From NCBI GenBank assembly GCA_965203095.1, contig OZ241877.1, positions 608,001 to 672,000 on the forward strand: a stretch of 64,000 nucleotides of DNA. The letters run 5' to 3'. The first letter of the stretch is position 1; every line of letters begins with the position of its first letter. This document shows positions 35,793 to 48,028 of the stretch, in pieces. The position numbers and the translations under genes are program-made. Under the pieces are notes generated by a model. It did not search any database and was not told the DNA's origin. It saw nothing but the letters and a program-made list of their open reading frames with translations. This DNA comes from Bdellovibrionales bacterium (GTDB lineage Bacteria; Bdellovibrionota; Bdellovibrionia; Bdellovibrionales; UBA1609).

Positions 35793-36950
35793 TTAGAAGT
35801 GAAAAGTCAACTCGCCATGAAGGCTGTTGGCTTCATCAGAGTCCACTCCATCAGTTAAGTTGTGGGCAAACTTGGCAACAAAATTAGTGTTGTCCCAAGG
35901 GTTATATTGTGCCCGAACAGCAATGCCTTTACCAGCACCTGTGAAGTAATCTCTGTTAAGTAAATCAGTGTTAAAATGATTGCCATCAATTTCATGGTAG
36001 CTTACAGCCAAACCAAAGTCGTTAGCTGACCCTGGAGACGCTTTGCCAGCCTCTCCAGCATAAACTCCACCGGTAAAATTAAGACCTTCGCCTAACTGAT
36101 CAACATTTGTCATATAAGCACCAAACACACCAACGGGAATACCCATATCCGCACTCACATGAACACCCACTTTAGCTAAAGTGACATCATTAGTGCTTTC
36201 TGTAGTAGCAGGTTCTTCTTCAGCTCCTGCTTCATCTGCTGTTTCGTCCGCAGTGTCTACTGTGGCAGTGCTTTCGACAGTTTTGTTAAAAAGACCGCCG
36301 TAATCAGCAGATACATAAACACCCGCTTTTACACCTTCAGCAAATTCAAACTTAGCACCCACTTTTCCAAATAAAATACCCCCTTCAGAAAAAGGGCCTT
36401 TGTAAGCTGTATCCAACTCATAAACACCCACTTTGCCGTAAAAACTGGCAGGGTCCTCATCTTCTCCATGACGATATTTAACCCAAGCCCCCGCAGGGTA
36501 AAGGTCTTCATCGTAAAGAACTCCCACTTTGTGAAAGCTGGGTTTAAAGGATTTTTTACCCGCTAATACAGAGAAGTTTTCCACTGGTGAATAAGAGACA
36601 TAAGCTTGTTCTAAAGCTATTGGAGTCACACCAGGGCCACCAAATACGGAATTGACTATACTCTTACCACTCATATCCCCTGAACTGCTACTAACACCCA
36701 CAGCCCATTTAACGGATTCATTCACATTACCTTGCCAACCCAATCTGGCTCTGTAAGAAGCCTCCCTTTCTTGTAAAACATCCCCATATTTTAGCTCAAC
36801 AGAACCTGTAAAGCCACTTTCTTCCTCCTCCATAGAACCGGTATCGCTTATCATATCAGACATGTGATCCACTTCTGTATGCGAATGCATTTCCGCAACA
36901 GAACTGAAACCAAATACAGCTGATATAATAAAAATAGATTTTTTAAACAT
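35793..36950 (-). CDS. Putative outer-membrane porin
   Basis: AAGGAGG SD, signal peptide, Gly/aromatic-rich beta strands (YRARLG, LEQAYVSY), C-terminal Phe, own promoter and terminator. Confidence 0.7.
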   Translation of the reverse strand: MFKKSIFIISAVFGFSSVAEMHSHTEVDHMSDMISDTGSMEEEESGFTGSVELKYGDVLQEREASYRARLGWQGNVNESVKWAVGVSSSSGDMSGKSIVNSVFGGPGVTPIALEQAYVSYSPVENFSVLAGKKSFKPSFHKVGVLYDEDLYPAGAWVKYRHGEDEDPASFYGKVGVYELDTAYKGPFSEGGILFGKVGAKFEFAEGVKAGVYVSADYGGLFNKTVESTATVDTADETADEAGAEEEPATTESTNDVTLAKVGVHVSADMGIPVGVFGAYMTNVDQLGEGLNFTGGVYAGEAGKASPGSANDFGLAVSYHEIDGNHFNTDLLNRDYFTGAGKGIAVRAQYNPWDNTNFVAKFAHNLTDGVDSDEANSLHGELTFHF

Positions 36951-36985
36951 ATCTACCTCCTTAAGGTTATTTCTCATTTAGGGAT

Positions 36986-37014
36986 AGTTAATACAAGTCA
37001 CGGTGACTTGTCAA
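36986..37014 (-). promoter_or_regulatory. sigma70 promoter of the porin gene with overlapping palindromic operator
   Basis: Minus strand TTGACA-17 nt-TTAACT; perfect palindrome ACAAGTCAC-G-GTGACTTGT at 36993-37011. Confidence 0.7.
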
Positions 37015-37438
37015 ATGCTGGCCTGCTTTTTTTAGGACTATGGATAAAAAAGCTATCTTCAGGGCAAAAAAAGAGAAAAAGCCTATAAAATAGGCTTTTT
37101 AGGGCCTATTTTTTGTTTTTATCAGCACCTTTTTTACATTCTGCAACATTTTTTTTAAAAAAAATATAAGATTTTTTCGTTTTTTTCTCAAAAAAAGACT
37201 GTTTTTGGCTATTTTCCCAAAAAAAACCTTTTTATTGGCTTTAAACTGCCCCACAGTGGGCTTTTTTATAAATCCAGCAGGAAAAATTCAGCCAAGATCG
37301 GATTTTAAAAAAGAGACGAATGGGGAAATACCAACCGATTATATACTTTACAAATGGTTTACTGAAAAGACAGCCGGCTTAAATTGAAGATGGCAAAAAC
37401 AAATCCCAGAGGGATTGGCCGGATAAGCAGGGAATAAA

Positions 37439-37595
37439 TAGTCGTCCGTGAAAAAGCTGGACAAAAAACCTCGTCCTCTTTTTCCTGCTTTTGTCCAAAG
37501 GCCATTCCATGAGTGTCCAAGGTATTGCCGTCCCGAAATGGAATGGTCCTTTAGACAAAAAAAGTTAAAAAACAAAGGTTTTTCACGGACAACTA
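37439..37595. mobile_element. MITE-like element, copy 2
   Basis: TAGTCGTCCGTGAAAAA ... TTTTTCACGGACAACTA; near-identical to 19851-20008. Confidence 0.8.
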
Positions 37596-37830
37596 AATAG
37601 ATTATTGCTTGGCTAAAAGCTTATCCAACAAAGGGGCTGAGCCGTGCATTTAAAAAGCAAAAGCTCCCTTAAGGAGCTGATGCTTGGATTTCAATAAACT
37701 AAAACCATTAAAGGATTTATCATTTATTATTATCATCCAAAGTGGCAAAAAAGTAAAGTAAAAATTTTAAAAAAATCAAAAGCCTTATTCTATGCGGGTT
37801 CTGGGGAAACTGTGGCCAGAGGGAAAGCAC

Positions 37831-37856
37831 AAAAAAAGACCTTTCAGGGAAGGTCT
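37831..37856 (-). terminator. Putative intrinsic terminator without a cognate ORF
   Basis: Minus strand AGACCTT-loop-AAGGTCT followed by a T run. Confidence 0.55.
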
Positions 37857-38069
37857 AAACTACCACAGCACTTTAAGGAAAATCCTTTTGGCTGGTTTTT
37901 ATTTTTGAGTCTACAAGTGCCCCTTCAAAGTTTGCTCTGTATGTGTTCGCTATTTCGCTGACAAAATTTGCCTAAAAAACCGCTGGGCCTTTAGGCAAAC
38001 CTGGCTGAGCTTTTTCACAAGACCCTATTTAATAATGTCAAAAAGATTTAAAAATAAACTATCTGAACC

Positions 38070-38098
38070 TTGAAAAGACAGGCAAACAAAGGTATATC
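38070..38098 (+). promoter_or_regulatory. Putative sigma70 promoter of tRNA-Asp
   Basis: TTGAAA-17 nt-TATATC just upstream of the tRNA. Confidence 0.45.
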
Positions 38099-38110
38099 CT
38101 TTAATAATGT

Positions 38111-38187
38111 GGGGTGGTAGTTAAGTTGGTTATAACGCCGGCCTGTCACGTCGGAGGCCGCGGGTTCAAGTCCCGTCCACCCCGCCA
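38111..38187 (+). tRNA. tRNA-Asp (GTC)
   Basis: GGGGTGGTAGTTAAG...CCTGTCACG...GGTTCAAGTCC...CACCCCGCCA. Confidence 0.97.
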
Positions 38188-38333
38188 TTTAACCTCATAG
38201 CCAGCTCCCAGTATTTTACTAAGTGTCCCATAAAGAGCAAAAACCTTTTAAAAGAAACATTATTTTGAAAGGCTATAAATTGCCACTAAAATTTATTGCT
38301 TTAAGGCAAAAAAACATAAATACTTAATGTATC

Positions 38334-41183
38334 ATGGCAATCAACCAGAAAGAACATCAAGAGAAAATTAAAGCTTTTTTAGCTTGGTTCAAAAACTGTA
38401 AAGGTTCTGAAAAGGGAGAAGGTCAAATATTTTTTGACCGTCTTCTTAAAGCTTTTGGTAATACAGGCGTTATAGGAGCTGGAGCTGTTTGTGAACCACC
38501 AGTCAAAAAACAAAAAGGGAAAGGTGTTATTTTTCCCGATCTTGTTTGGAAGCCCAGAGTAATTATTGAATTAAAGAAGAGAGGCACCGCCCTTCAAAAG
38601 CACTATGATCAAGCTTTTGATTACTGGATTACTTTAGTCCCTAATCGTCCGAAATATATGATTTTATGTAATTTTGATGAATTTTGGATATATGATTTAA
38701 ACAGTCAATTACATGATCCTGTCCATAAACTAAATACAAAAGACCTCCAAACAAACTGGGGAGCTTTAAAGTTTCTTTTACCAATAGAAGAAGAACCTTT
38801 ATTTGACAATCATAATGTGGCTATCACAGAACAAGTTGCAAAGACTGTCGGTGCAATTTATCTATCTATGGTTAAAAGAGACATATCAAAGGATAAAGCT
38901 CAGAGATTCGTTTTGCAATTAGTTATAGCTTTGTTTTCAGAAGATGTTGGGTTAATGCCTCAATACACATTACATGAGATTTTAAAAAAATGTCTTACTG
39001 ATCTTCCAGCTCAAAAAGAACTATCTCTTTTATTTAAAGCTATGGCAAACAAAAATAAATTTGATAAACCTAAAAAATATAAACACATTGAATATTTTAA
39101 TGGAGGGATTTTTAAGAAAACTAACGCAGTGGAACTATCTTATAAAGAGGTAGAATTATTACATGATGCCTCAAAGCAAAATTGGGAAAAAGTTAGGCCC
39201 TCTATATTCGGTTCTCTTTTTGAGGGAAGTATGGATCCAAAAAGAAGGCACGGTCATGGTATTCACTATACTCATGAATTGGATATATATAAAATTGTTG
39301 GACCTTCTATTGTCAGGCCATTTCAAGAAAAAATAAACAAAGCAAAAACAAAAAGAGCAAAAAGAAAACTGTTGAAAGAAATACAGGAATTTAAAGTCTT
39401 AGATCCTGCTTGTGGTAGTGGGAACTTTCTTTATATTGCTTTCAGGGAGTTAAGAAAACTGGAAATGGAAATTTTAGAAGATTTAGGAGAGGGTAGACAA
39501 ATTCGTGCCTCAGAGCTGGGCTTGCTTGTTTCCCCAAGAAACTTTTATGGCATTGACACAAACAAATTTGGTTTAGAGTTAGCAAAAGTGGCTTTATCTA
39601 TTGGTCGAAAACTTTTGGCCGATGAGTTTAATATCCAAGATCCCTCTTTGCCTCTTGATGATTTAGACAATAATTTTTTATCTAAAGATGCTTTATTTAC
39701 TGAGTGGCCTAAAGTAGATGCAATTATTGGCAATCCTCCTTACCAATCCAAAAATAAAATCCAACAGGAAATGGGAGTAAGTTATATAAATAAATTGCGA
39801 AAAACGGAACCGCTTGTTCCGGGAAGAGCAGATTATTGTGTTTATTGGTTTAAAAAAGCTCATGATCATCTATCAAAAAAAGGTATGGCTGGATTGGTCG
39901 GAACAAACACAATAAGAGAAAACTATTCCAGAGAAGGAGGTTTGGATTATATCGTCCAAAATGGTGGCATCATTACAGAAGCTGTGTCCAGCCAAAAGTG
40001 GTCTGGTTCAGCGGCGGTTTATGTGTCCATAGTAAATTGGACAAAAGATGAATTTTATAGGCAAAAAATAAAAAAGCTTTTTATAAACCAGGGTAATGAA
40101 CCAAATTTTAAAGTCTATAAACGAAAAAAAATAAATTCTGCTTTATCTGTTGATATAGATGTCTCTCAGGCTAAAGTGTTAAATGTTAATAAAAAATCTA
40201 AAACGGCTTATCAAGGCCAAACCCATGGACATTCAGCTTTTTTAATACATAAAAAAGAGGCTGAAAAAATGATTTTCAAAAAACCAATTCTGAAGGATGT
40301 TTTAAAGCCTTTTTTAACAGCTCATAATTTTATAGCTGGAAAAACCTCTTTGCCTCAAAGATATGTCATAGATTTTTCAGATAAAACCCTAATACAGTCT
40401 CAAAAATATAAAGAATTATATAAAATTATAGAAAAAGCGGTTTTGCCAAAAAGAAGAGAAGAAGCAGAAAAGGAAAAGGCCAGAAACAAAACATTATTAA
40501 AAATAGATCCTAAAGCTAAAGTGAATAGACATCATAAAAATTTTTTAAAAACATGGTGGCGGTTATCTTATCCAAGAACAGACTTAATGAAGAAAATCAG
40601 AAAAATAAAAAGGTATTGTGTTTGTGGTCGTGTCACACAAAGAGGCATCTTTGATTTTGTCCATTCAGATATAAATCCAAATGATGCTTTGGTTGCTTTT
40701 GCTTTTGATGATGATTATTCTTTTGGCATTTTACAGTCCAGTATGCATTGGACTTGGTTTATTCATAGGTGCTCCACTTTGGGAACAGGTCCTCGTTACA
40801 CGATTAACACAGTATACGACACTTTTCCCTGGCCACAAAAACCTACTCTAACTCACATAAAGGCAGTGGCTAAAAAGGCTAAAGAATTAAGGAAAGCAAG
40901 AACAGAGATTTTAAAACAGGAAGAGGTAAGTTATCGCGACCTGTATCGCTCTATGGAATTGCCTGGAGATCACAAACTGCGAAAATATCATAAGGCTTTG
41001 GATAAAGCTGTTTATTCTGTTTACGGCTGTAAAAAAACTCAAGATGAGCTTGATTTTCTTTTGAAGTTGAATTTAGATTTATCTAAAAGAGAGGCCAGAG
41101 GAGAAAAGATCACAGGGCCAGGTTTGTCGCATATTGTCAAAAGCCCAACGGAGTTAATTACAAGGGATTGTATTTCTTTATAG
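38334..41183 (+). CDS. MmeI/YeeA-like fused restriction-modification enzyme (type IIL/IIG)
   Basis: N-terminal PD..IELK nuclease motif, plus IFGSLFE, G.HYT, DPACGSGNFL and GNPPY. The C-terminal FGILQSSMHW.W..RY.....TFPWP is typical of the MmeI family. Confidence 0.88.
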   Translation: MAINQKEHQEKIKAFLAWFKNCKGSEKGEGQIFFDRLLKAFGNTGVIGAGAVCEPPVKKQKGKGVIFPDLVWKPRVIIELKKRGTALQKHYDQAFDYWITLVPNRPKYMILCNFDEFWIYDLNSQLHDPVHKLNTKDLQTNWGALKFLLPIEEEPLFDNHNVAITEQVAKTVGAIYLSMVKRDISKDKAQRFVLQLVIALFSEDVGLMPQYTLHEILKKCLTDLPAQKELSLLFKAMANKNKFDKPKKYKHIEYFNGGIFKKTNAVELSYKEVELLHDASKQNWEKVRPSIFGSLFEGSMDPKRRHGHGIHYTHELDIYKIVGPSIVRPFQEKINKAKTKRAKRKLLKEIQEFKVLDPACGSGNFLYIAFRELRKLEMEILEDLGEGRQIRASELGLLVSPRNFYGIDTNKFGLELAKVALSIGRKLLADEFNIQDPSLPLDDLDNNFLSKDALFTEWPKVDAIIGNPPYQSKNKIQQEMGVSYINKLRKTEPLVPGRADYCVYWFKKAHDHLSKKGMAGLVGTNTIRENYSREGGLDYIVQNGGIITEAVSSQKWSGSAAVYVSIVNWTKDEFYRQKIKKLFINQGNEPNFKVYKRKKINSALSVDIDVSQAKVLNVNKKSKTAYQGQTHGHSAFLIHKKEAEKMIFKKPILKDVLKPFLTAHNFIAGKTSLPQRYVIDFSDKTLIQSQKYKELYKIIEKAVLPKRREEAEKEKARNKTLLKIDPKAKVNRHHKNFLKTWWRLSYPRTDLMKKIRKIKRYCVCGRVTQRGIFDFVHSDINPNDALVAFAFDDDYSFGILQSSMHWTWFIHRCSTLGTGPRYTINTVYDTFPWPQKPTLTHIKAVAKKAKELRKARTEILKQEEVSYRDLYRSMELPGDHKLRKYHKALDKAVYSVYGCKKTQDELDFLLKLNLDLSKREARGEKITGPGLSHIVKSPTELITRDCISL

Positions 41184-41260
41184 CCTGTATGGAACATTTT
41201 TTGCTTTATAATCGTATGGTTTTGTGATTAATAAAGAGTAAAGATATAGGAGCAAGTCAA

Positions 41261-41533
41261 ATGTATGAAAAGATATTAGAAGTCAAAGGGCCAGCAAAAG
41301 GGGCTATTCGGCGAGTAATGCCAGATATTGGCTTTGGTGCTATTTGGGATAAAAAGAATAAGCAGGATGTATATTTTTCGACTGTAACAAAATTCATCAA
41401 TACTTCTTATGAGGAGCTTAACGAAGGTGATATAGTAGAAGTCTTGGTTGTCAGAACAGCCAGGGGTCTATTTGCCAAAAATCTTTCTTTAAAAACAGCT
41501 CGCCCTCCTCAAGAAGTTAGTCCAAATCTATAA
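41261..41533 (+). CDS. Cold-shock-domain (OB-fold) protein
   Basis: GFGAI..(RNP1-like), DVYF (RNP2-like), L.EGD.VE...RGL.A.N; SD present. Confidence 0.7.
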   Translation: MYEKILEVKGPAKGAIRRVMPDIGFGAIWDKKNKQDVYFSTVTKFINTSYEELNEGDIVEVLVVRTARGLFAKNLSLKTARPPQEVSPNL

Positions 41534-41555
41534 AATGGTTTATCTTTTTTGTTGC

Positions 41556-41599
41556 TTAAAAATGTTGAGGAAAAGGTCCTTTAAATACCCATGAACCAA
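41556..41599 (+). repeat. Left inverted repeat flanking the four-gene cassette
   Basis: TTAAAAATGTTGAGGAAAA (41556-41574) plus ATGAACCAA (41591-41599); the inverse is at 46254-46286. Confidence 0.7.
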
Positions 41600-41639
41600 A
41601 AATAATGTTGAAACCCTAAATTATTAAGGAAAAAATACT

Positions 41640-42926
41640 GTGAAAATATCAAATTTAAAAATTAAAAACATTAAGTGCTTTAAAGAAATTGAAATTCCAT
41701 TTGAGGATAATGGAGAAATAAAAAAATGGTCTCTTGTTGTGGGAAACAACGGAGACGGCAAAACTACTATTCTAAGGTGTCTTGCACTTGGATTGTGTGA
41801 TGAATCTGGAGCCTCAGCCCTTTTAGCAGAATTATATGGCTTTTTACGAGAACATGAAGAAAAAGGCTCTATTGAAGTTATTTTAAAGGATGAAAATGAA
41901 AACAAAAAATACCAAATAAATACAGAGATAACTCTAAAAGGAAACAACGAATCTGTTTCTCAAAAGATATATCCCTTAAATTCTAAAAATGAACGAGATA
42001 AAGAAATAACTGCAACAGAATTAAATGATCTCAGGGATAAAATTTTTGCTATTGCTTACGGATCAGGTAGAAGCATCACCGGCACAGAATCGTATGAAGA
42101 ATATGCAGTTGTTGATTCTGTATATTACCTTTTTAATTATAAACATCCTTTACAAAATGCAGAACTTGGAGCACGGAGAATAGAATCTAAATCTAAAAAA
42201 CAACTCAATGAATTAACAAATTGTCTAAAAAAAATATTAATGTTAAAAGATAACGATGAGATTATACTGAACCCAAAAGGTTTGTTTATGAAAACGAACC
42301 AATGGGGGCTTAGGTCTTTTAATTCCTTAAGTGATGGTTATCAATCACTTACAACTGTGATCATAGATTTTTTAAGCTGGAGGCTTTTGTATGACAGCAA
42401 AAGTTTTGATTTAAGCAAAACTTCAGGCATTTTTATTATTGATGAAGTGGAGCAACACTTGCACCCTAAGTGGCAAAGAAACATTATAAACATTCTTGCC
42501 CAACAGTTTCGGAATATACAATTTATAGGTGGCACACATACTCCTATTTGTGCTTTAGGACTTAATGACTTAGAATGCAAATCACAACTTATTAAAACCT
42601 CTTATGTGAATAATCACAGTGAGGTGGAGAGTTTGGATATGAAGGAAACCTATAAAGGCTACAGAGTGGATCAAATATTGACCTCCGATATTTTTGAATT
42701 AACAAGTGCAAGAAGTAAAAAAATGCAAAAAACCCTTGAAGATTATCAGAATATTTATTTAAAAAGAGAGAATGAAAGAACCACACAAGAGATAGAAAGG
42801 ATGAAGCAAATAGAAAAAGAGCTTAAAGATCTTCCAATGTGGGATACCCTGCGGGATAAAAGGATAAGAGAGCAACTGTCTCACTTGCTTGAACAAAATC
42901 AAGGCACTAAACATGATAAAGATTGA
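41640..42926 (+). CDS. ABC/AAA_21-type ATPase, PtuA (Septu/retron I-A effector)-like
   Basis: Walker A GNNGDGKT, AYGSGR, signature LSDGY, Walker B IIDEVEQHLHPKWQ, and GTHTP. Confidence 0.85.
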   Translation: MKISNLKIKNIKCFKEIEIPFEDNGEIKKWSLVVGNNGDGKTTILRCLALGLCDESGASALLAELYGFLREHEEKGSIEVILKDENENKKYQINTEITLKGNNESVSQKIYPLNSKNERDKEITATELNDLRDKIFAIAYGSGRSITGTESYEEYAVVDSVYYLFNYKHPLQNAELGARRIESKSKKQLNELTNCLKKILMLKDNDEIILNPKGLFMKTNQWGLRSFNSLSDGYQSLTTVIIDFLSWRLLYDSKSFDLSKTSGIFIIDEVEQHLHPKWQRNIINILAQQFRNIQFIGGTHTPICALGLNDLECKSQLIKTSYVNNHSEVESLDMKETYKGYRVDQILTSDIFELTSARSKKMQKTLEDYQNIYLKRENERTTQEIERMKQIEKELKDLPMWDTLRDKRIREQLSHLLEQNQGTKHDKD

Positions 42927-43689
42927 ACGCAATAAAGTGCCTCAAAACACCAGCATGGATCAGAAGAAAGCTACAGAGCTTGAAAAGATCAAAAAAGCCA
43001 TTGATAAGAAAAGCAAACCACAATTTGTGCCTTTATGGACAAGAGACAGGAAAGTAAAAGAATATCTTGGTAAGTCTCAATATGGAAAATGTTGTTATTG
43101 TGAGCAAAAAAGGAATCTGGCGGAATCTGATGTGGAGCATTTCCGGCCTAAAGCTGAATTAAAGGAAAACAAGAAGCACCCGGGCTATTGGTGGCTGGCA
43201 TATAGTTGGGATAATTTACTTATATCATGTAAAAAATGCAATAATCGTAAAGGGACAAATTTCCCTCTCAAAGATGAAAGTAAAAGAGTTTTCTCTGAGA
43301 AAGATGACCTACAAAAAGAAGAACCCTTTTTAATTAACCCTTTAACTGAAAACCCGGAAAAATTTATAAAATATGATATTCCTGAGAATAACACAAAGCC
43401 ACCGATGATAAAAGCCATTGGAAAATGTGAAAGAGGGGATAAAACAGTAAATGAGCTGACAGGAATAAACTCTGAAAATGTTCCTTTAAGGAGGGCGGAA
43501 AAGTTTGAGCATTATTTATATTTATGCAAGTATCTTGCCTTACTTAAAAAAGATAATTCAAACAATTGTGCTGAAATAGAGCAAGTTAAAAAAGATATGA
43601 GAAAAATGCAAGATTCATCCAGTGAATTTGCAGGTCTGGCCAGAGATTATTTTATTCGAGTTCTAGGCTTAAGAGGCTTAAATGATTGA
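42913..43689 (+). CDS. HNH endonuclease, PtuB-like
   Basis: KCCYCE, VEHFRPK, WLAYSWDNL..SCKKCN.RKG..FP, LINP. ATG 42913 overlaps the ATPase 3' end. Confidence 0.88.
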   Translation: MIKIERNKVPQNTSMDQKKATELEKIKKAIDKKSKPQFVPLWTRDRKVKEYLGKSQYGKCCYCEQKRNLAESDVEHFRPKAELKENKKHPGYWWLAYSWDNLLISCKKCNNRKGTNFPLKDESKRVFSEKDDLQKEEPFLINPLTENPEKFIKYDIPENNTKPPMIKAIGKCERGDKTVNELTGINSENVPLRRAEKFEHYLYLCKYLALLKKDNSNNCAEIEQVKKDMRKMQDSSSEFAGLARDYFIRVLGLRGLND

Positions 43690-44845
43690 GAAACTTCCAT
43701 ATAAAAACAATTTGCCACCAAACACACCGTATTTTCTTTTTGATAAAGAGAATTTAAGAGAGAGATTATTCTTACATAAAACAATAGAGAGAAAATCAAA
43801 TATTAAATTAGTTTATTCTATTAAATCTCTCTCGCATATAGAAATTCTTAAAGAAATTGCAAAACATATTAAAGGTTTTTCTGTCAGTTCCCTTTTTGAA
43901 TCAAATTTAGTTAAATGTATAACTAATAAACAACATACAATTCATTTTATAAGTCCCGGGATTAAAGCTGGCCAATGGGATATGATCTCTAAAACAGCTC
44001 ATTTTGTGACATTCAATTCTGTAGAACAGTTTATGAGGTTTAAAAACAAGCTAAAATCTAAAACAAGTTATGGGATTCGTTTAAATCCTGAAATATCTTT
44101 CATTTCCGATTCTCGTTATAATCCTTGCAGAAAATCTTCTAAATTAGGAGTGCCTCTATCAGATATATTAAAATTTTTAGAAAAATCAAGATATGCCAAA
44201 CAATTAAAAGGGCTACATTTTCATAATAACTGCGATAGTCATAATTTATCTGAACTCACAAAAACTTTTAAACAAATTGAATTTTATTTAGGGAAATATC
44301 TAAATAAATTTGAATGGATTAACCTTGGAGGAGGATACTTATTCAATAACTCAAATGATATAAATACCTTCTATTATTTAATACAATATATTAAACAAAA
44401 ATATAAATTCAAGAATATCATTATAGAACCTGGAAGTTCTTTAGTGCGAGATACTGCTTATCTTGTTTCCTCAGTTATTGACATATTCAAAAGAGAGGGA
44501 AAAAACATAGCCATTTTAGATACAACAACTAATCATTTGCCAGAAGTTTTTGAGTATCAATATACCCCCAATATAGTAGAATCTAACACTTCAGGTCCTT
44601 ATGAGTATATGTTAGCAGGTTGCAGTTGCTTGGCAGGAGATATTTTTGGAACATATTTTTTTAAAAAAAAGCTTAAAATAGGTTCAAAGATAACATTTAA
44701 TAAAGTAGGAAGTTATTCTCTTGTAAAAGCTAATATGTTTAACGGAATTAATTTACCTGATATTTATTATTTAGAAAATAACATGCGGTTAAAAAATATA
44801 AAAAATTATACTTTTAATGATTATATGAACTATTGCGGAGGATAA
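43682..44845 (+). CDS. Carboxynorspermidine decarboxylase-like PLP enzyme (alanine-racemase fold, group IV)
   Basis: TPYF, PLP Lys in YSIKS, SSLFE, RLNPE..YNPC..SKLG, GLHFH..C, WINLGGG, EPG, GCSCLAGD and VK.NMFNGINLP: the NspC motif set. Confidence 0.8.
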   Translation: MIEKLPYKNNLPPNTPYFLFDKENLRERLFLHKTIERKSNIKLVYSIKSLSHIEILKEIAKHIKGFSVSSLFESNLVKCITNKQHTIHFISPGIKAGQWDMISKTAHFVTFNSVEQFMRFKNKLKSKTSYGIRLNPEISFISDSRYNPCRKSSKLGVPLSDILKFLEKSRYAKQLKGLHFHNNCDSHNLSELTKTFKQIEFYLGKYLNKFEWINLGGGYLFNNSNDINTFYYLIQYIKQKYKFKNIIIEPGSSLVRDTAYLVSSVIDIFKREGKNIAILDTTTNHLPEVFEYQYTPNIVESNTSGPYEYMLAGCSCLAGDIFGTYFFKKKLKIGSKITFNKVGSYSLVKANMFNGINLPDIYYLENNMRLKNIKNYTFNDYMNYCGG

Positions 44846-44848
44846 AGT

Positions 44849-46249
44849 TTGATGAATTTTTTTGAAAAAGAAATTTTAATATCAAAAGTTAAAAATAATA
44901 AAAAATTGCTTTTTTATCTTAAAGAAAAAATTTCCTCCATATTAGGTAAAGAAGGGCTATTTCCTATTAGATTCATTATTACAAATAGTTCCAATCAAGA
45001 ATATAAATGTGAAGTTAGTGTTTTAGATACAAAAAATATGAGTGGGTTTAAAGAAGCAGAATATTTATTTGAATTTCAAAAACGCCAGTTTGAAAACACA
45101 AAAACTTTTAATGTCGTTTTTATAGTTCCTACAGGAATAGGAGCTGAAATAGGAGGCCATGCAGGGGATGCTACTCCAATCGCAAGGCTAATAGCCTCTG
45201 CTTGTGACACTTTAATTACTCATCCCAATGTTTGTAATGCATCAGATATCAACGAAATGCCAGAGAACAGTATGTATGTTGAAGGGAGCACTATCTGTCG
45301 TGTGATGATGGGCACAATTGGCTTACAACCAGTAAGATCAAATAGAATTTTAGCTGTTATAGATAATAATGAACATAAAATTTTTGAGAATACTGCCATA
45401 AACTCTATAAATGCGGCAAGAGCTACTTTAGGTATTAACTGCTCAAAAATTATAAAATTATTACCGCCTATTTCAATGACATCAAAATATTCATCTTCTA
45501 AAAGAGCTGTTGGAAATATCAAAGATATAAATAATCTATTTTCTATTATAAAACAACATCAAGGAGATCATGACGCTGTTGCTATTTCATCTATAATTAA
45601 AGTTCCTAAAAATTATCATAAGGATTATTTTCTTAGTAAAGGAGACATGATTAATCCTTGGGGAGGAGTAGAGGCTATGCTAACTCATGCTCTTTCATAT
45701 AAATTTAATATACCTTCCGCACACTCTCCAATGTTTGAAACTCCTGAAATTGCTAATATGGATCCTGGAATCGTAGATGTTAGAATGTCTGCCGAAGCTG
45801 TTTCTGCCTCTTTTTTCCATTGTGTTCTTAAAGGCTTGCACAAGAGTCCAAAAATTATAACTGAGAAAGATGCATTCTACTCCGACGGTATTATATCAGC
45901 AAAAGATATTTCTTGTTTAGTAATACCCGATGGTTGTTTAGGACTTCCAACTCTTTCAGCTTTAGAGCAAGGAATTAAAGTTATTGCTGTAAAAGAAAAC
46001 AAGAATTTAATGTGTAATGACTTATCTACTTTACCATGGAGTAAAGGGCAGTTTTTCCAAGTTGAAAATTATTTAGAGGCTGTTGGTATATTAAATGCAA
46101 TAAAAAATGGCATCAATCCAAAATCTGTAAGGCGTCCATTTCAAACATTATCAAGTGAATGTGAAATAAACCAAGCATTGACAAAACAAAATAAACAAAA
46201 CAAGCATACAATATTATCTGTATTTCCTAAACTATGGCAAAAGCATTAA
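44849..46249 (+). CDS. DUF3326 family protein with N-terminal extension
   Basis: Motifs VPTGIGAEIGGHAGDA, LITHPNV.NASD, YVEG, NPWGGVEA, AHSP, R.SAE and V.NYLEA.G. Confidence 0.8.
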   Translation: MMNFFEKEILISKVKNNKKLLFYLKEKISSILGKEGLFPIRFIITNSSNQEYKCEVSVLDTKNMSGFKEAEYLFEFQKRQFENTKTFNVVFIVPTGIGAEIGGHAGDATPIARLIASACDTLITHPNVCNASDINEMPENSMYVEGSTICRVMMGTIGLQPVRSNRILAVIDNNEHKIFENTAINSINAARATLGINCSKIIKLLPPISMTSKYSSSKRAVGNIKDINNLFSIIKQHQGDHDAVAISSIIKVPKNYHKDYFLSKGDMINPWGGVEAMLTHALSYKFNIPSAHSPMFETPEIANMDPGIVDVRMSAEAVSASFFHCVLKGLHKSPKIITEKDAFYSDGIISAKDISCLVIPDGCLGLPTLSALEQGIKVIAVKENKNLMCNDLSTLPWSKGQFFQVENYLEAVGILNAIKNGINPKSVRRPFQTLSSECEINQALTKQNKQNKHTILSVFPKLWQKH

Positions 46250-46253
46250 ATTA

Positions 46254-46286
46254 TTGGTTCATAAATATTTTTCTCAACATTTTTAA
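46254..46286 (-). repeat. Right inverted repeat flanking the four-gene cassette
   Basis: Reverse complement TTAAAAATGTTGAGAAAAA-tattt-ATGAACCAA; matches the left copy at 18/19 and 9/9. Confidence 0.7.
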
Positions 46287-46533
46287 TATAAAAAATCTAC
46301 TACATCTTCCTGAAAGGATTGGGCTTGTTTTCTCAAACATATTTCCAAAAAAGAACCTCGCACTAAATCAACTTGATCTCTTAGAGAGTCTGAAAATTCT
46401 TTAGCTCCTTTTGCCTTAAAAAACTTTATAAGTTTTTTGTAGTATTCCTAAAACTTGCAAGATAAAATGAACTATTATATTTTTTTTCACTCTGCCATTT
46501 TTCTCTTGCAAGTATAAGCCAATATCAACCTGC

Positions 46534-47868
46534 TCAGTAACGGTAGTTTTGTGATTTGAATGGCCCTTCCTGAGGCACATTCAAGTATTCTGCCTGTGAC
46601 TTACTCAGTTTTGTAAGTTGAGCCGATAGTTTCCCTAAGTGCAAACGAGCCACCTTTTCATCTAAAATTTTAGGCAGAACATGAACACCAACAGGATAGT
46701 CTCTATGGTTTTGCCAAAGCTCTATTTGAGCCAAAACCTGATTGGTAAAAGAAGTGCTCATTACAAAAGAAGAATGCCCTGTCCCGCAAGCCAAATTAAC
46801 TAAACGGCCCTCTGCCAAAACAATAATTTCCCTCCCATTAGAGAGGCGATGGATTTGGACCTGATCTTTAACCCGCCGGGACTGGCTGTTTGCCTTAAGC
46901 CACTTCATATCCACTTCCACATCAAAATGGCCAATGTTGCAAACAATAGCTCCTGATTTCATTTTTTCAAAATGCTCTTTTTGAATGACCCCCTTGCAAC
47001 CAGTAGCTGTGACGAAAATATCCATCTCATCAGCCACATCCTGTAGCCGAACCACCTCATACCCCTCCATACGAGCCTGAAGGGCACATATCGGATCAAT
47101 TTCTGAAACAAAAACCCTGGCACCAAAAGAACGCAAACTTTGGGCAGAACCTTTGCCCACATCTCCATAACCAGCCACCAAAGCCTTTTTTCCGGCTATC
47201 ATAATATCTGTTGCTCTTTTTAAACCATCAGCTAAAGACTCCCGGCAACCATAAAGATTATCAAATTTAGATTTTGTCACAGAGTCATTCACATTGATAG
47301 CTGGAACTTTTAAACGGCCTTTTTGGTTCAATTTTTTTAAGTATTGAACTCCTGTAGTGGTTTCTTCTGAAAGCCCCCGGACATTTTTCATCAAACTCGC
47401 CTGCCCGTCTTCATGCATAAATTTTGTAAGGTCCCCTCCGTCATCAATGATCAAATCAAAACCCTTCCCGCCCCAACCATAAACAGACTGCTCGATACAC
47501 CAATGATACTCTTCTTCTGTCTCCCCCTTCCAAGAAAAAACGGGAACTCCGGCCTGAGCTAAAGCCACCGCGGAATGATCTTGTGTGGAGTAAATGTTAC
47601 AGGAAGACCACCTCAGCTCAGCTCCTAATTTGAGCAAAGTCTCTATCAAAACGGCGGTCTGAATAGTGACATGAAGGCAACCTGTGATTTTAGCCCCTTT
47701 TAGAGGGGCGAGAGGCCCATACTCCTCTCTTAAAGCCATAAGCCCAGGCATTTCCACTTCAGCTAAGCGAATCTCCTCCCGCCCCCATCGAGCCAGCTCT
47801 TCAAACTGCTTTTTGTTCCCCATAGAGGCGACCTTATAATCAGAAAAAATATTTTTAGCAGGGATCAT
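46534..47868 (-). CDS. ahcY: S-adenosylhomocysteine hydrolase
   Basis: Motifs [44 protein letters not shown] and GRLVNL.C.TGH. Confidence 0.97.
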
Positions 47869-48028
47869 TTTATTTTTATAATGTCTTTGTAAAGATATGT
47901 CTACAAAATCCTTTGGCTTTTTGGAGTTTTCTCACAGAAAATCATAAAAGCACTAAACAGTGGCCCGTGAAAAACCTCTATAATTCAAAGGGGATTTTTC
48001 AGTTTCTTTGCCTAAAGGCCGTCTTTCC

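Follow-up and report, generated by a model that had tools for sequence, protein, structure and literature searches.

A Septu-type PtuAB nuclease pair and a putative amine-forming enzyme pair in a recurrent four-gene cassette from Bdellovibrionales

The PtuAB pair, in which the gene for an ABC ATPase is followed by that for an HNH nuclease, is found both as stand-alone Septu and joined to type I-A retrons. It acts as an abortive nuclease that nicks DNA and causes the loss of tRNA-Tyr, and it can be placed under a separate control module (PMC12819146, PMC13096335). For instance, retron Ec78 restrains toxic PtuAB, and stand-alone Septu is described in the same source as self-controlled without a partner (PMC12819146); in Septu Ec-B88, both active sites are required and tRNA-Tyr is cut (PMC13096335). 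Here, we describe a cassette that joins PtuAB to two enzymes, an NspC-like decarboxylase and a DUF3326 protein. It lies in a stretch of 64,000 nucleotides (hereafter, the window) from a Bdellovibrionales bacterium (assembly GCA_965203095.1, contig OZ241877.1, positions 608,001 to 672,000 of the forward strand) and consists of the following genes, numbered by their positions in the window:

41640..42926, + strand: PtuA-like ABC ATPase, 428 aa, without N-terminal extension (PADLOC PtuA, 5e-61; best PDB match 8ee4, PtuA, 5e-17)
42913..43689, + strand: PtuB-like HNH nuclease, 258 aa from the ATG (PADLOC PtuB, 1e-54; TIGR02646 narrowly above its cut-off; HNH motifs)
43682..44845, + strand: NspC/CASDC-like decarboxylase dependent on pyridoxal 5′-phosphate (PLP), 387 aa, of a DUF3326-linked clade (TIGR01047; 3n29, CANSDC, 1.5e-58)
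44849..46249, + strand: DUF3326 protein (PavB family), 466 aa, long form with about 85 additional N-terminal residues (PF11805, 1e-94)

The four open reading frames (ORFs) are intact, lie on the same strand, and together span 4.6 kb, with overlaps of 14 nt between PtuA and PtuB and of 8 nt between PtuB and the decarboxylase and a gap of 3 nt before DUF3326; coordinates and reading frames are thus as described in a first-pass annotation of this DNA, made by a model from the letters and their translations. For PtuB, an alternative TTG start upstream, at 42889, is also open. The motifs are likewise intact in PtuA (Walker A at residue 35, Walker B at 267, and the H-loop), and they are present in PtuB (HNH motifs at 74 and 106) and in the decarboxylase (the PLP lysine motif YSIKS at 45). 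With PtuA directly followed by an overlapping PtuB, and with the Walker A, Walker B, and HNH residues preserved, the first two genes have the features of Septu, and PADLOC, from which a Septu call at most had been expected, calls PtuA and PtuB and has no model for the two enzymes. Judged by sequence, the effector belongs to a Septu clade, so the cassette counts as a variant within a known system; the earlier proposal of a new defense system stands as regards a recurrent unit, but not as regards the effector.

The first-pass annotation had made that proposal depend on finding the four-gene order in other genomes, and the order is in fact conserved in distant ones. In a survey that started from DUF3326, PtuA-PtuB-decarboxylase-DUF3326 was found in 10 of 48 genome loci, the remaining 38 being without PtuAB. 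Six of the 10 have the NspC-like version (L002 to L007, from Bdellovibrionales and one Thermodesulfobacteriota metagenome-assembled genome, MAG), and four have in its place a pyruvoyl AdoMetDC-like protein of 123-134 aa (L012, Deltaproteobacteria; L014, Proteobacteria; L017, Syntrophales; L026, Ca. Oxydemutatoraceae). In the opposite direction, a search of 384 genomes of the order for PtuA (E <= 1e-30) gave eight matches, our genome included, and all eight carry the full cassette; five of them repeat loci of the first survey, and the counts therefore overlap. Among named sequences, the cassette is closest to those in Bdellovibrionales MAGs. Two samples of genomes from across the phylum gave two matches among 401 and three among 301, and neither added a cassette.

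Metagenomes were searched with an alignment of seven linked PtuAs, a seed that biases the result toward the PtuA clade in question, and of 351 loci that were confirmed, the best 80 were kept; a few loci are duplicates (L017 and L078). Leaving aside 24 loci that are too short and eight without a visible PtuB, 48 could be scored: PtuB is followed within 2 kb by a decarboxylase in 39, whereas the module is missing from nine despite at least 700 bp of room. The decarboxylase is AdoMetDC-like in 30 of the 39 and NspC-like in nine, and DUF3326 is seen in 33, the other six reaching the contig end. The gap between PtuB and the decarboxylase has a median of 30 nt (51 loci) and is at most 150 nt in 45 of the 51, and the linkage holds at a median PtuA identity of 37% and a G+C content of 31-64%. 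Distances between PtuAs correlate with those between DUF3326 proteins (rho 0.46, versus 0.49 for PtuA and PtuB; 31 loci), which points to co-inheritance and not to function. Thus, the survey that had been suggested for linkage of DUF3326 and this NspC clade to ATPase and HNH genes shows such linkage to be recurrent, and the gene orders indicate that the four genes are a unit found across phyla rather than a chance neighborhood. At one locus (L006:2285-6840), PtuA-PtuB occurs twice in tandem, the two pairs being sisters on the tree and sharing a single enzyme module. In several genomes of the same family (L025, L166 to L168, and L170), which have no PtuAB there, NspC-like and DUF3326 genes are convergent and separated by a few genes.

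The third position of the cassette is filled by either of two unrelated folds, the PLP-dependent NspC-like enzyme or the pyruvoyl AdoMetDC-like enzyme. On a PtuA tree (69 rows, quick IQ-TREE, LG+G4, with an outgroup of five plasmid ATPases and without most of the rows whose state is unknown), there are at least six changes between the two types and four changes for the presence of the module. A change of fold in a slot that nonetheless retains a decarboxylase is a sign that selection acts on a chemical step. The NspC-like enzyme, which the first-pass annotation had taken as the module's decarboxylase, is therefore recurrent, but it is one of two interchangeable types and the rarer one (9 versus 30 loci). 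A phylogeny against housekeeping NspC had been recommended, and in it a single branch (Shimodaira–Hasegawa-like approximate likelihood ratio test, SH-aLRT, 100) separates 38 DUF3326-linked NspC-like rows from 29 of the housekeeping type on a quick tree with a single distant outgroup. The cassette enzyme scores 299.6 bits against TIGR01047 (nspC), short of the cut-off of 409, and two other linked copies score 273 and 308. DUF3326 is within 1.5 kb of none of the 29 housekeeping-type NspCs, and a dehydrogenase-like motif, scored with a crude pattern, is close to 24 of them. As for the pyruvoyl version, AdoMetDC homologs can be ornithine or arginine decarboxylases (PMC10407285), and the substrate, be it S-adenosylmethionine, ornithine, arginine, or lysine, is not readable from the sequence. 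The coupling of polyamines itself has several separate origins (PMC13625781).

The same ATPase clade offers a comparison with PtuAs that lack the module. More than 100 extra N-terminal residues are present in none of 45 module-linked PtuAs versus seven of nine unlinked ones, in which the fused part is TIR (L085, L095, L099, and L132), STAND/EAD1 (L128), HNH (L139), or, in one case, unannotated. Enzyme module and N-terminal fusion thus appear to be nearly mutually exclusive, which suggests that the two enzymes stand where a control module would. The earlier idea that they replace the retron in this role gains from the position and the near-exclusion, together with the absence of a retron. PtuA relatives fused to TIR, DUF4062 plus TIR, STAND/EAD1, or cold-shock domains and followed by PtuB (L085, L095, L099, L132, L128, and L102) are possibly undescribed Septu variants.

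What might the enzymes make? The sole functional data that we found on DUF3326 come from the pavettamine pathway, where the formation of N-(5-aminopentyl)pentane-1,5-diamine requires PavA, which is annotated with a carboxynorspermidine-decarboxylase domain, as well as the DUF3326 protein PavB (bioRxiv 10.64898/2026.06.12.731819). DUF3326, for which the first-pass annotation knew of no function, thus has a member that gives a free polyamine together with its partner. By analogy of family name, DUF3326 is a probable amine-coupling enzyme, and a plain triamine would be the expected product of the cassette enzymes, given that the window holds no hydroxylases.

The AlphaFold2 model of the DUF3326 core is confident (predicted local distance difference test, pLDDT, 95.5), with two alpha/beta domains and the invariant polar residues D107, N127, E275, H292, and E316. 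The structural check that had been recommended thus yielded a confident fold, but no clear relative: the PDB sequence search, Foldseek, and VIA-align gave no match to the whole protein, and the ESM Atlas gave no usable one. With VIA-align, the full model reaches a Z of 6.6 at best and the core one of 9.8, the latter to generic Rossmann-like domains (root-mean-square deviation 3.1, 129 aligned of 346), and saccharopine reductase reaches 7.8-8.1 against the core, level with unrelated rows. These searches therefore demonstrate neither a new fold nor a function. PtuAB-linked DUF3326 proteins are of the long form, which is also found without any effector.

The enzyme pair is not confined to PtuAB. 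In five loci (L010, L013, L016, L018, and L172), it follows the gene for an unrelated membrane protein about 400 aa in length, and one locus (L118) has both effectors. The membrane protein has no PADLOC or NCBIfam match, and its placement before the enzyme pair is as would be expected of swappable effectors. Phages carry the enzymes as well. Among 50 viral DUF3326 loci, an AdoMetDC-like gene is nearby in 41, and an NspC-like gene and PtuA in none; terminase, portal, capsid, or connector genes lie within 3 kb in at least 21 (68 of 300 neighbor clusters scanned). Most of these viral proteins are without the N-terminal extension and form a separate group on the tree, and DUF3326 had no match in GenBank phages or in PLSDB plasmids. 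An AdoMetDC-like tree (123 columns) was too poorly resolved to reveal exchange between phages and cassettes. The packaging context suits a polyamine that would condense DNA, and this placement of the pair offers a plausible route for infection to alter the amine pool.

We regard it as highly probable that the four genes form one functional defense unit, whatever its mechanism. As for that mechanism, we see even chances that a Septu-type PtuAB nuclease is controlled by a polyamine made by the cassette. DUF3326 would form a C-N bond between a diamine and either a basic amino acid or a second diamine, and decarboxylation would take place after the joining (by the NspC-like enzyme) or on the precursor before it (by the pyruvoyl enzyme), so that a single scheme could fit both decarboxylase versions. 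The amine product would then set the activity of PtuAB. Tentatively, it may be an off-switch, a constitutive amine that keeps PtuAB quiet and is drained by infection, with phage DNA replication and packaging soaking up the amine or draining its precursor and thereby releasing the nuclease. The converse, in which an amine induced by infection turns PtuAB on, is ranked below this, and we consider it unlikely. The fullest version, in which a triamine made by the cassette holds PtuAB off, phage replication and packaging deplete it, phages carrying the enzymes refill it, and the module also steers other effectors, is speculative and on the whole somewhat improbable.

Control of PtuAB by an amine has to be weighed against several observations. 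Stand-alone Septu already works, and is self-controlled, without a partner, and a specific signal is harder to conceive for polyamines, given their abundance and promiscuity. The substrate of PavA and PavB is possibly different from that of the cassette, as the likeness rests on family names. Two unlinked PtuAs (L097 and L129) have no long fusion, and five of the nine unlinked loci fall, with L132, in one subclade, so the comparison reflects few independent events and not 54. On the enzyme side, loci with DUF3326 and without PtuAB are common (PtuAB is present in just 10 of the 48), DUF3326 occurs in 16 of the 384 genomes of the order, of which eight have no PtuA match, and PtuAB-linked and unlinked proteins are intermixed on the DUF3326 tree. 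Nor does sequence decay clearly follow an order in which the toxin goes first: PtuA is split, with the enzymes whole, in three of 51 linked loci (L003, L004, and L007), but DUF3326 is frameshifted in two of 45 (L070 and L109), each with PtuA and PtuB unbroken.

Some of these observations would suit two co-regulated but independent arms, an ordinary Septu beside a polyamine that hinders phage DNA replication or shields host DNA and tRNA. In P. aeruginosa, phage replication is inhibited when polyamines accumulate inside the cell (10.1101/2022.04.01.486733), the enzyme pair is found alone and with other partners, and such arms would account for the selection of any decarboxylase in the slot. However, they leave unexplained why it is mainly PtuAs with a fused domain that lack the module and why the linkage is nearly complete when seen from PtuA (8/8; 39/48), and we consider them rather unlikely. 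It is quite unlikely, in our view, that the cassette is an ordinary Septu with hitch-hiking metabolic cargo, derived from one ancient fusion and inherited jointly with no functional link. A mobile low-G+C island and the non-defense contexts of the enzyme pair would fit such cargo, and co-inheritance alone yields correlated distances; nevertheless, the linkage has lasted to a median PtuA identity of 37%, across G+C contents of 31-64%, with gaps of about 30 nt, and through at least six non-homologous replacements inside the operon, which neutral linkage would rarely survive.

The first-pass annotation had also suggested an amine modification of DNA as a mark of self. In a scheme of this kind, host DNA or tRNA would receive an amine from the enzymes, and PtuAB would cut what is unmarked. 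The DNA of phage phiW-14 contains putrescinyl-thymine, several neighborhoods are restriction-like, genes resembling MfnB and nucleoside deoxyribosyltransferase flank some cassettes, and Septu-family nucleases hit tRNA-Tyr and DNA. Nevertheless, the idea finds little support, and we think it highly doubtful: the only characterized DUF3326 pathway yields a free amine, the core unit has no gene for binding nucleic acid or activating bases, and the phage copies are mostly among packaging genes. Very improbable, finally, is control at the protein level by analogy with the retron, with the N-terminal extension of DUF3326 or the enzyme pair binding PtuA and catalysis being secondary or serving as a substrate sensor. 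The retron precedent (PMC12819146) and the long form of PtuAB-linked DUF3326, set beside phage copies that mostly have no extension, would favor it, but the long form also occurs without an effector, PtuA lacks an N-terminal extension of the retron-binding type, and the free interchange of two unrelated decarboxylase folds fits a diffusible product better.

The host genome is 90% complete, a limit that applies to all genome-wide negatives. The remark that no reverse transcriptase or dehydrogenase partner is present, made for the window, extends to the genome: it has no PF00078 match, hence no retron, and its single PF03435 match, in a scan for a CASDH-type dehydrogenase, is a ThiF protein. A deoxyhypusine-synthase homolog and an MfnB-like gene are absent as well. 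The host has its own spermidine route, with AdoMetDC, SpeE, and a SpeA-sized decarboxylase, which argues that the cassette pair is not its housekeeping polyamine route. The host AdoMetDC is eukaryote-like (class 2) and adjoins speE (G000:C1:740873-742718, L226), and there is no PF02675 match. Elsewhere in this genome, an apparent operon adjoining a methyltransferase gene (G000:C1:314600-317000, L225) encodes a ubiquitin-like protein, an E2-like protein, and a JAB-ThiF fusion (ThiF assigned by NCBIfam, the remaining members by eye) and is likely a further defense locus, and a solitary gene for a 427-aa ABC-type ATPase follows three tandem tRNA-Ile calls (G000:C1:1739618-1740898; L283, L285).

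Around the cassette, the window contains the following features:

38111..38187, + strand: tRNA-Asp (Rfam), left end of a low-G+C island
38334..41183, + strand: type IIG (MmeI-like) restriction-modification gene (family matches), a neighbor outside the conserved unit
41261..41533, + strand: cold-shock-domain ORF, 90 aa (family match), a neighbor between the restriction-modification gene and the cassette
41556-41569 and 46273-46286, no strand: perfect 14-nt inverted repeat around the four genes (from the sequence)

The AT-richer island described 3′ of tRNA-Asp and beside an MmeI-like gene is borne out by base composition and by the tRNA and restriction-modification calls: the cassette has a G+C content of 31.1% versus a genome mean of 38.3 +/- 2.8, equally low values being found in 5 of 386 windows of equal size. 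Downstream of DUF3326, there is a sahH-like gene on the opposite strand. A contig from a public sequencing run spans 41393-46747 with zero differences; the run is perhaps the source sample, so it is not independent. The inverted repeat, a possible boundary mark of the cassette, occurs three times in the genome, and 5 of 2000 flank shuffles gave a repeat of at least 14 nt, for a feature that was picked post hoc; none was found at the loci of nine relatives. No duplicated 3′ end of tRNA-Asp was found by search, the tRNA was the sole match in an Rfam scan of 36000-48000, and a promoter scan of the region was uninformative (35 sites versus 33.6 expected). The sahH neighborhoods of four genomes of the same genus have no synteny with the window, so that no empty site could be defined. 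In some metagenome contigs, parts of the island are skipped at joints whose sides are under 30 nt, and these were not used. A transposase lies upstream of the enzyme pair at another locus (L001).

The type IIG gene is beside the cassette in none of 48 loci surveyed, and the cold-shock ORF, which has a weak match to the retron Se72 effector model, is likewise not conserved with it. Restriction-modification or BREX genes flank the cassettes at L003, L007, L014, L072, L078, L082, and L083 as well as that in the window; of 146 flanking proteins, 86 were scanned, and most of these have no defense match. An MfnB-like aldolase gene (PF04476, 4-(hydroxymethyl)-2-furancarboxaldehyde-phosphate synthase) is found directly upstream of PtuA, in either orientation, in 13 loci (L012, L017, L068, L070, L072, L078, L079, L086, L104, L105, L110, L116, and L126) and in none of the nine unlinked ones, and its product is a possible aldehyde donor or fifth component. 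Two further proteins recur, one of 273 aa with a weak nucleoside-deoxyribosyltransferase match (L012:7942-8760, L017, L072, and L078) and one of 385 aa with no family match and nothing usable in the ESM Atlas (L066:5308-6462, L071, L092, and L117).

The small-molecule controls of anti-phage effectors that we found described are nucleotide-derived, and control by an amine would add a new chemistry. If this is true, no bacterial immune system before the cassette would have been tied to a polyamine, and the phage enzyme pair might both condense the phage's own DNA and refill the inhibitor. If the same module also controls membrane-protein effectors, it would define a class of systems, with DUF3326 as a new type of polyamine synthase. 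The clade also offers a natural comparison on the trigger of stand-alone Septu, given that the same ATPase is fused to TIR or STAND or paired with an enzyme module, and, defense aside, the function of DUF3326, a family widespread in bacteria and phages, could be approached through the cassette. As far as we searched, in literature to which subscription papers and supplementary tables largely did not belong, the conserved cassette is unpublished, and we found no papers that link DUF3326 to defense or PtuA and PtuB to polyamines. A decarboxylase mentioned in one preprint (10.1101/2024.01.29.577857) is a domain of HEC-07 and unrelated to Septu.

Among known systems, the cassette shares with type I Septu (stand-alone PtuA-PtuB; 8ee4; Ec-B88) an ABC ATPase gene followed by an HNH gene, with intact motifs, and differs in its distinct clade and in having a two-enzyme module in the same operon. 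Plasmid Septu-like ATPases are less than 28% identical to its PtuA among the 30 listed, and SH-aLRT 99 separates five of them. With type I-A retrons (Ec78/Eco7 and Ec83), it shares PtuAB joined to a separate module able to restrain it; however, it has no reverse transcriptase in the genome and no msr-msd-type RNA in the Rfam scan of 36000-48000, its PtuA has 428 aa versus 540-550 aa, and NF041760 gives 114 bits versus a cut-off of 500. Its alignment with stand-alone PtuA begins at residue 1, whereas that with Ec83 PtuA begins at about residue 60 of the latter. As in PavA and PavB, both needed for the triamine in their pathway, a carboxynorspermidine-decarboxylase-like domain is encoded beside a DUF3326 protein. 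Unlike pavABC, the cassette lies in the context of a nuclease pair and has neither a Rieske domain nor a PavC-like (JmjC-like) hydroxylase, its 387-aa decarboxylase containing PLP-enzyme domains only, so a hydroxylated toxin is not expected. The CASDH/CASDC (NspC) pathway to spermidine and norspermidine has the same decarboxylase fold and PLP motifs, whereas the cassette enzyme is below the TIGR01047 cut-off, belongs to a separate clade, and has no dehydrogenase partner, DUF3326 being in the partner's place. With Panoptes (mCpol-2TM; PMC12657230), lastly, the off-switch would share its logic only, a constitutive small molecule whose loss frees a toxic effector; the two are not homologous, and the signal is a nucleotide in Panoptes and a presumed amine in the cassette.

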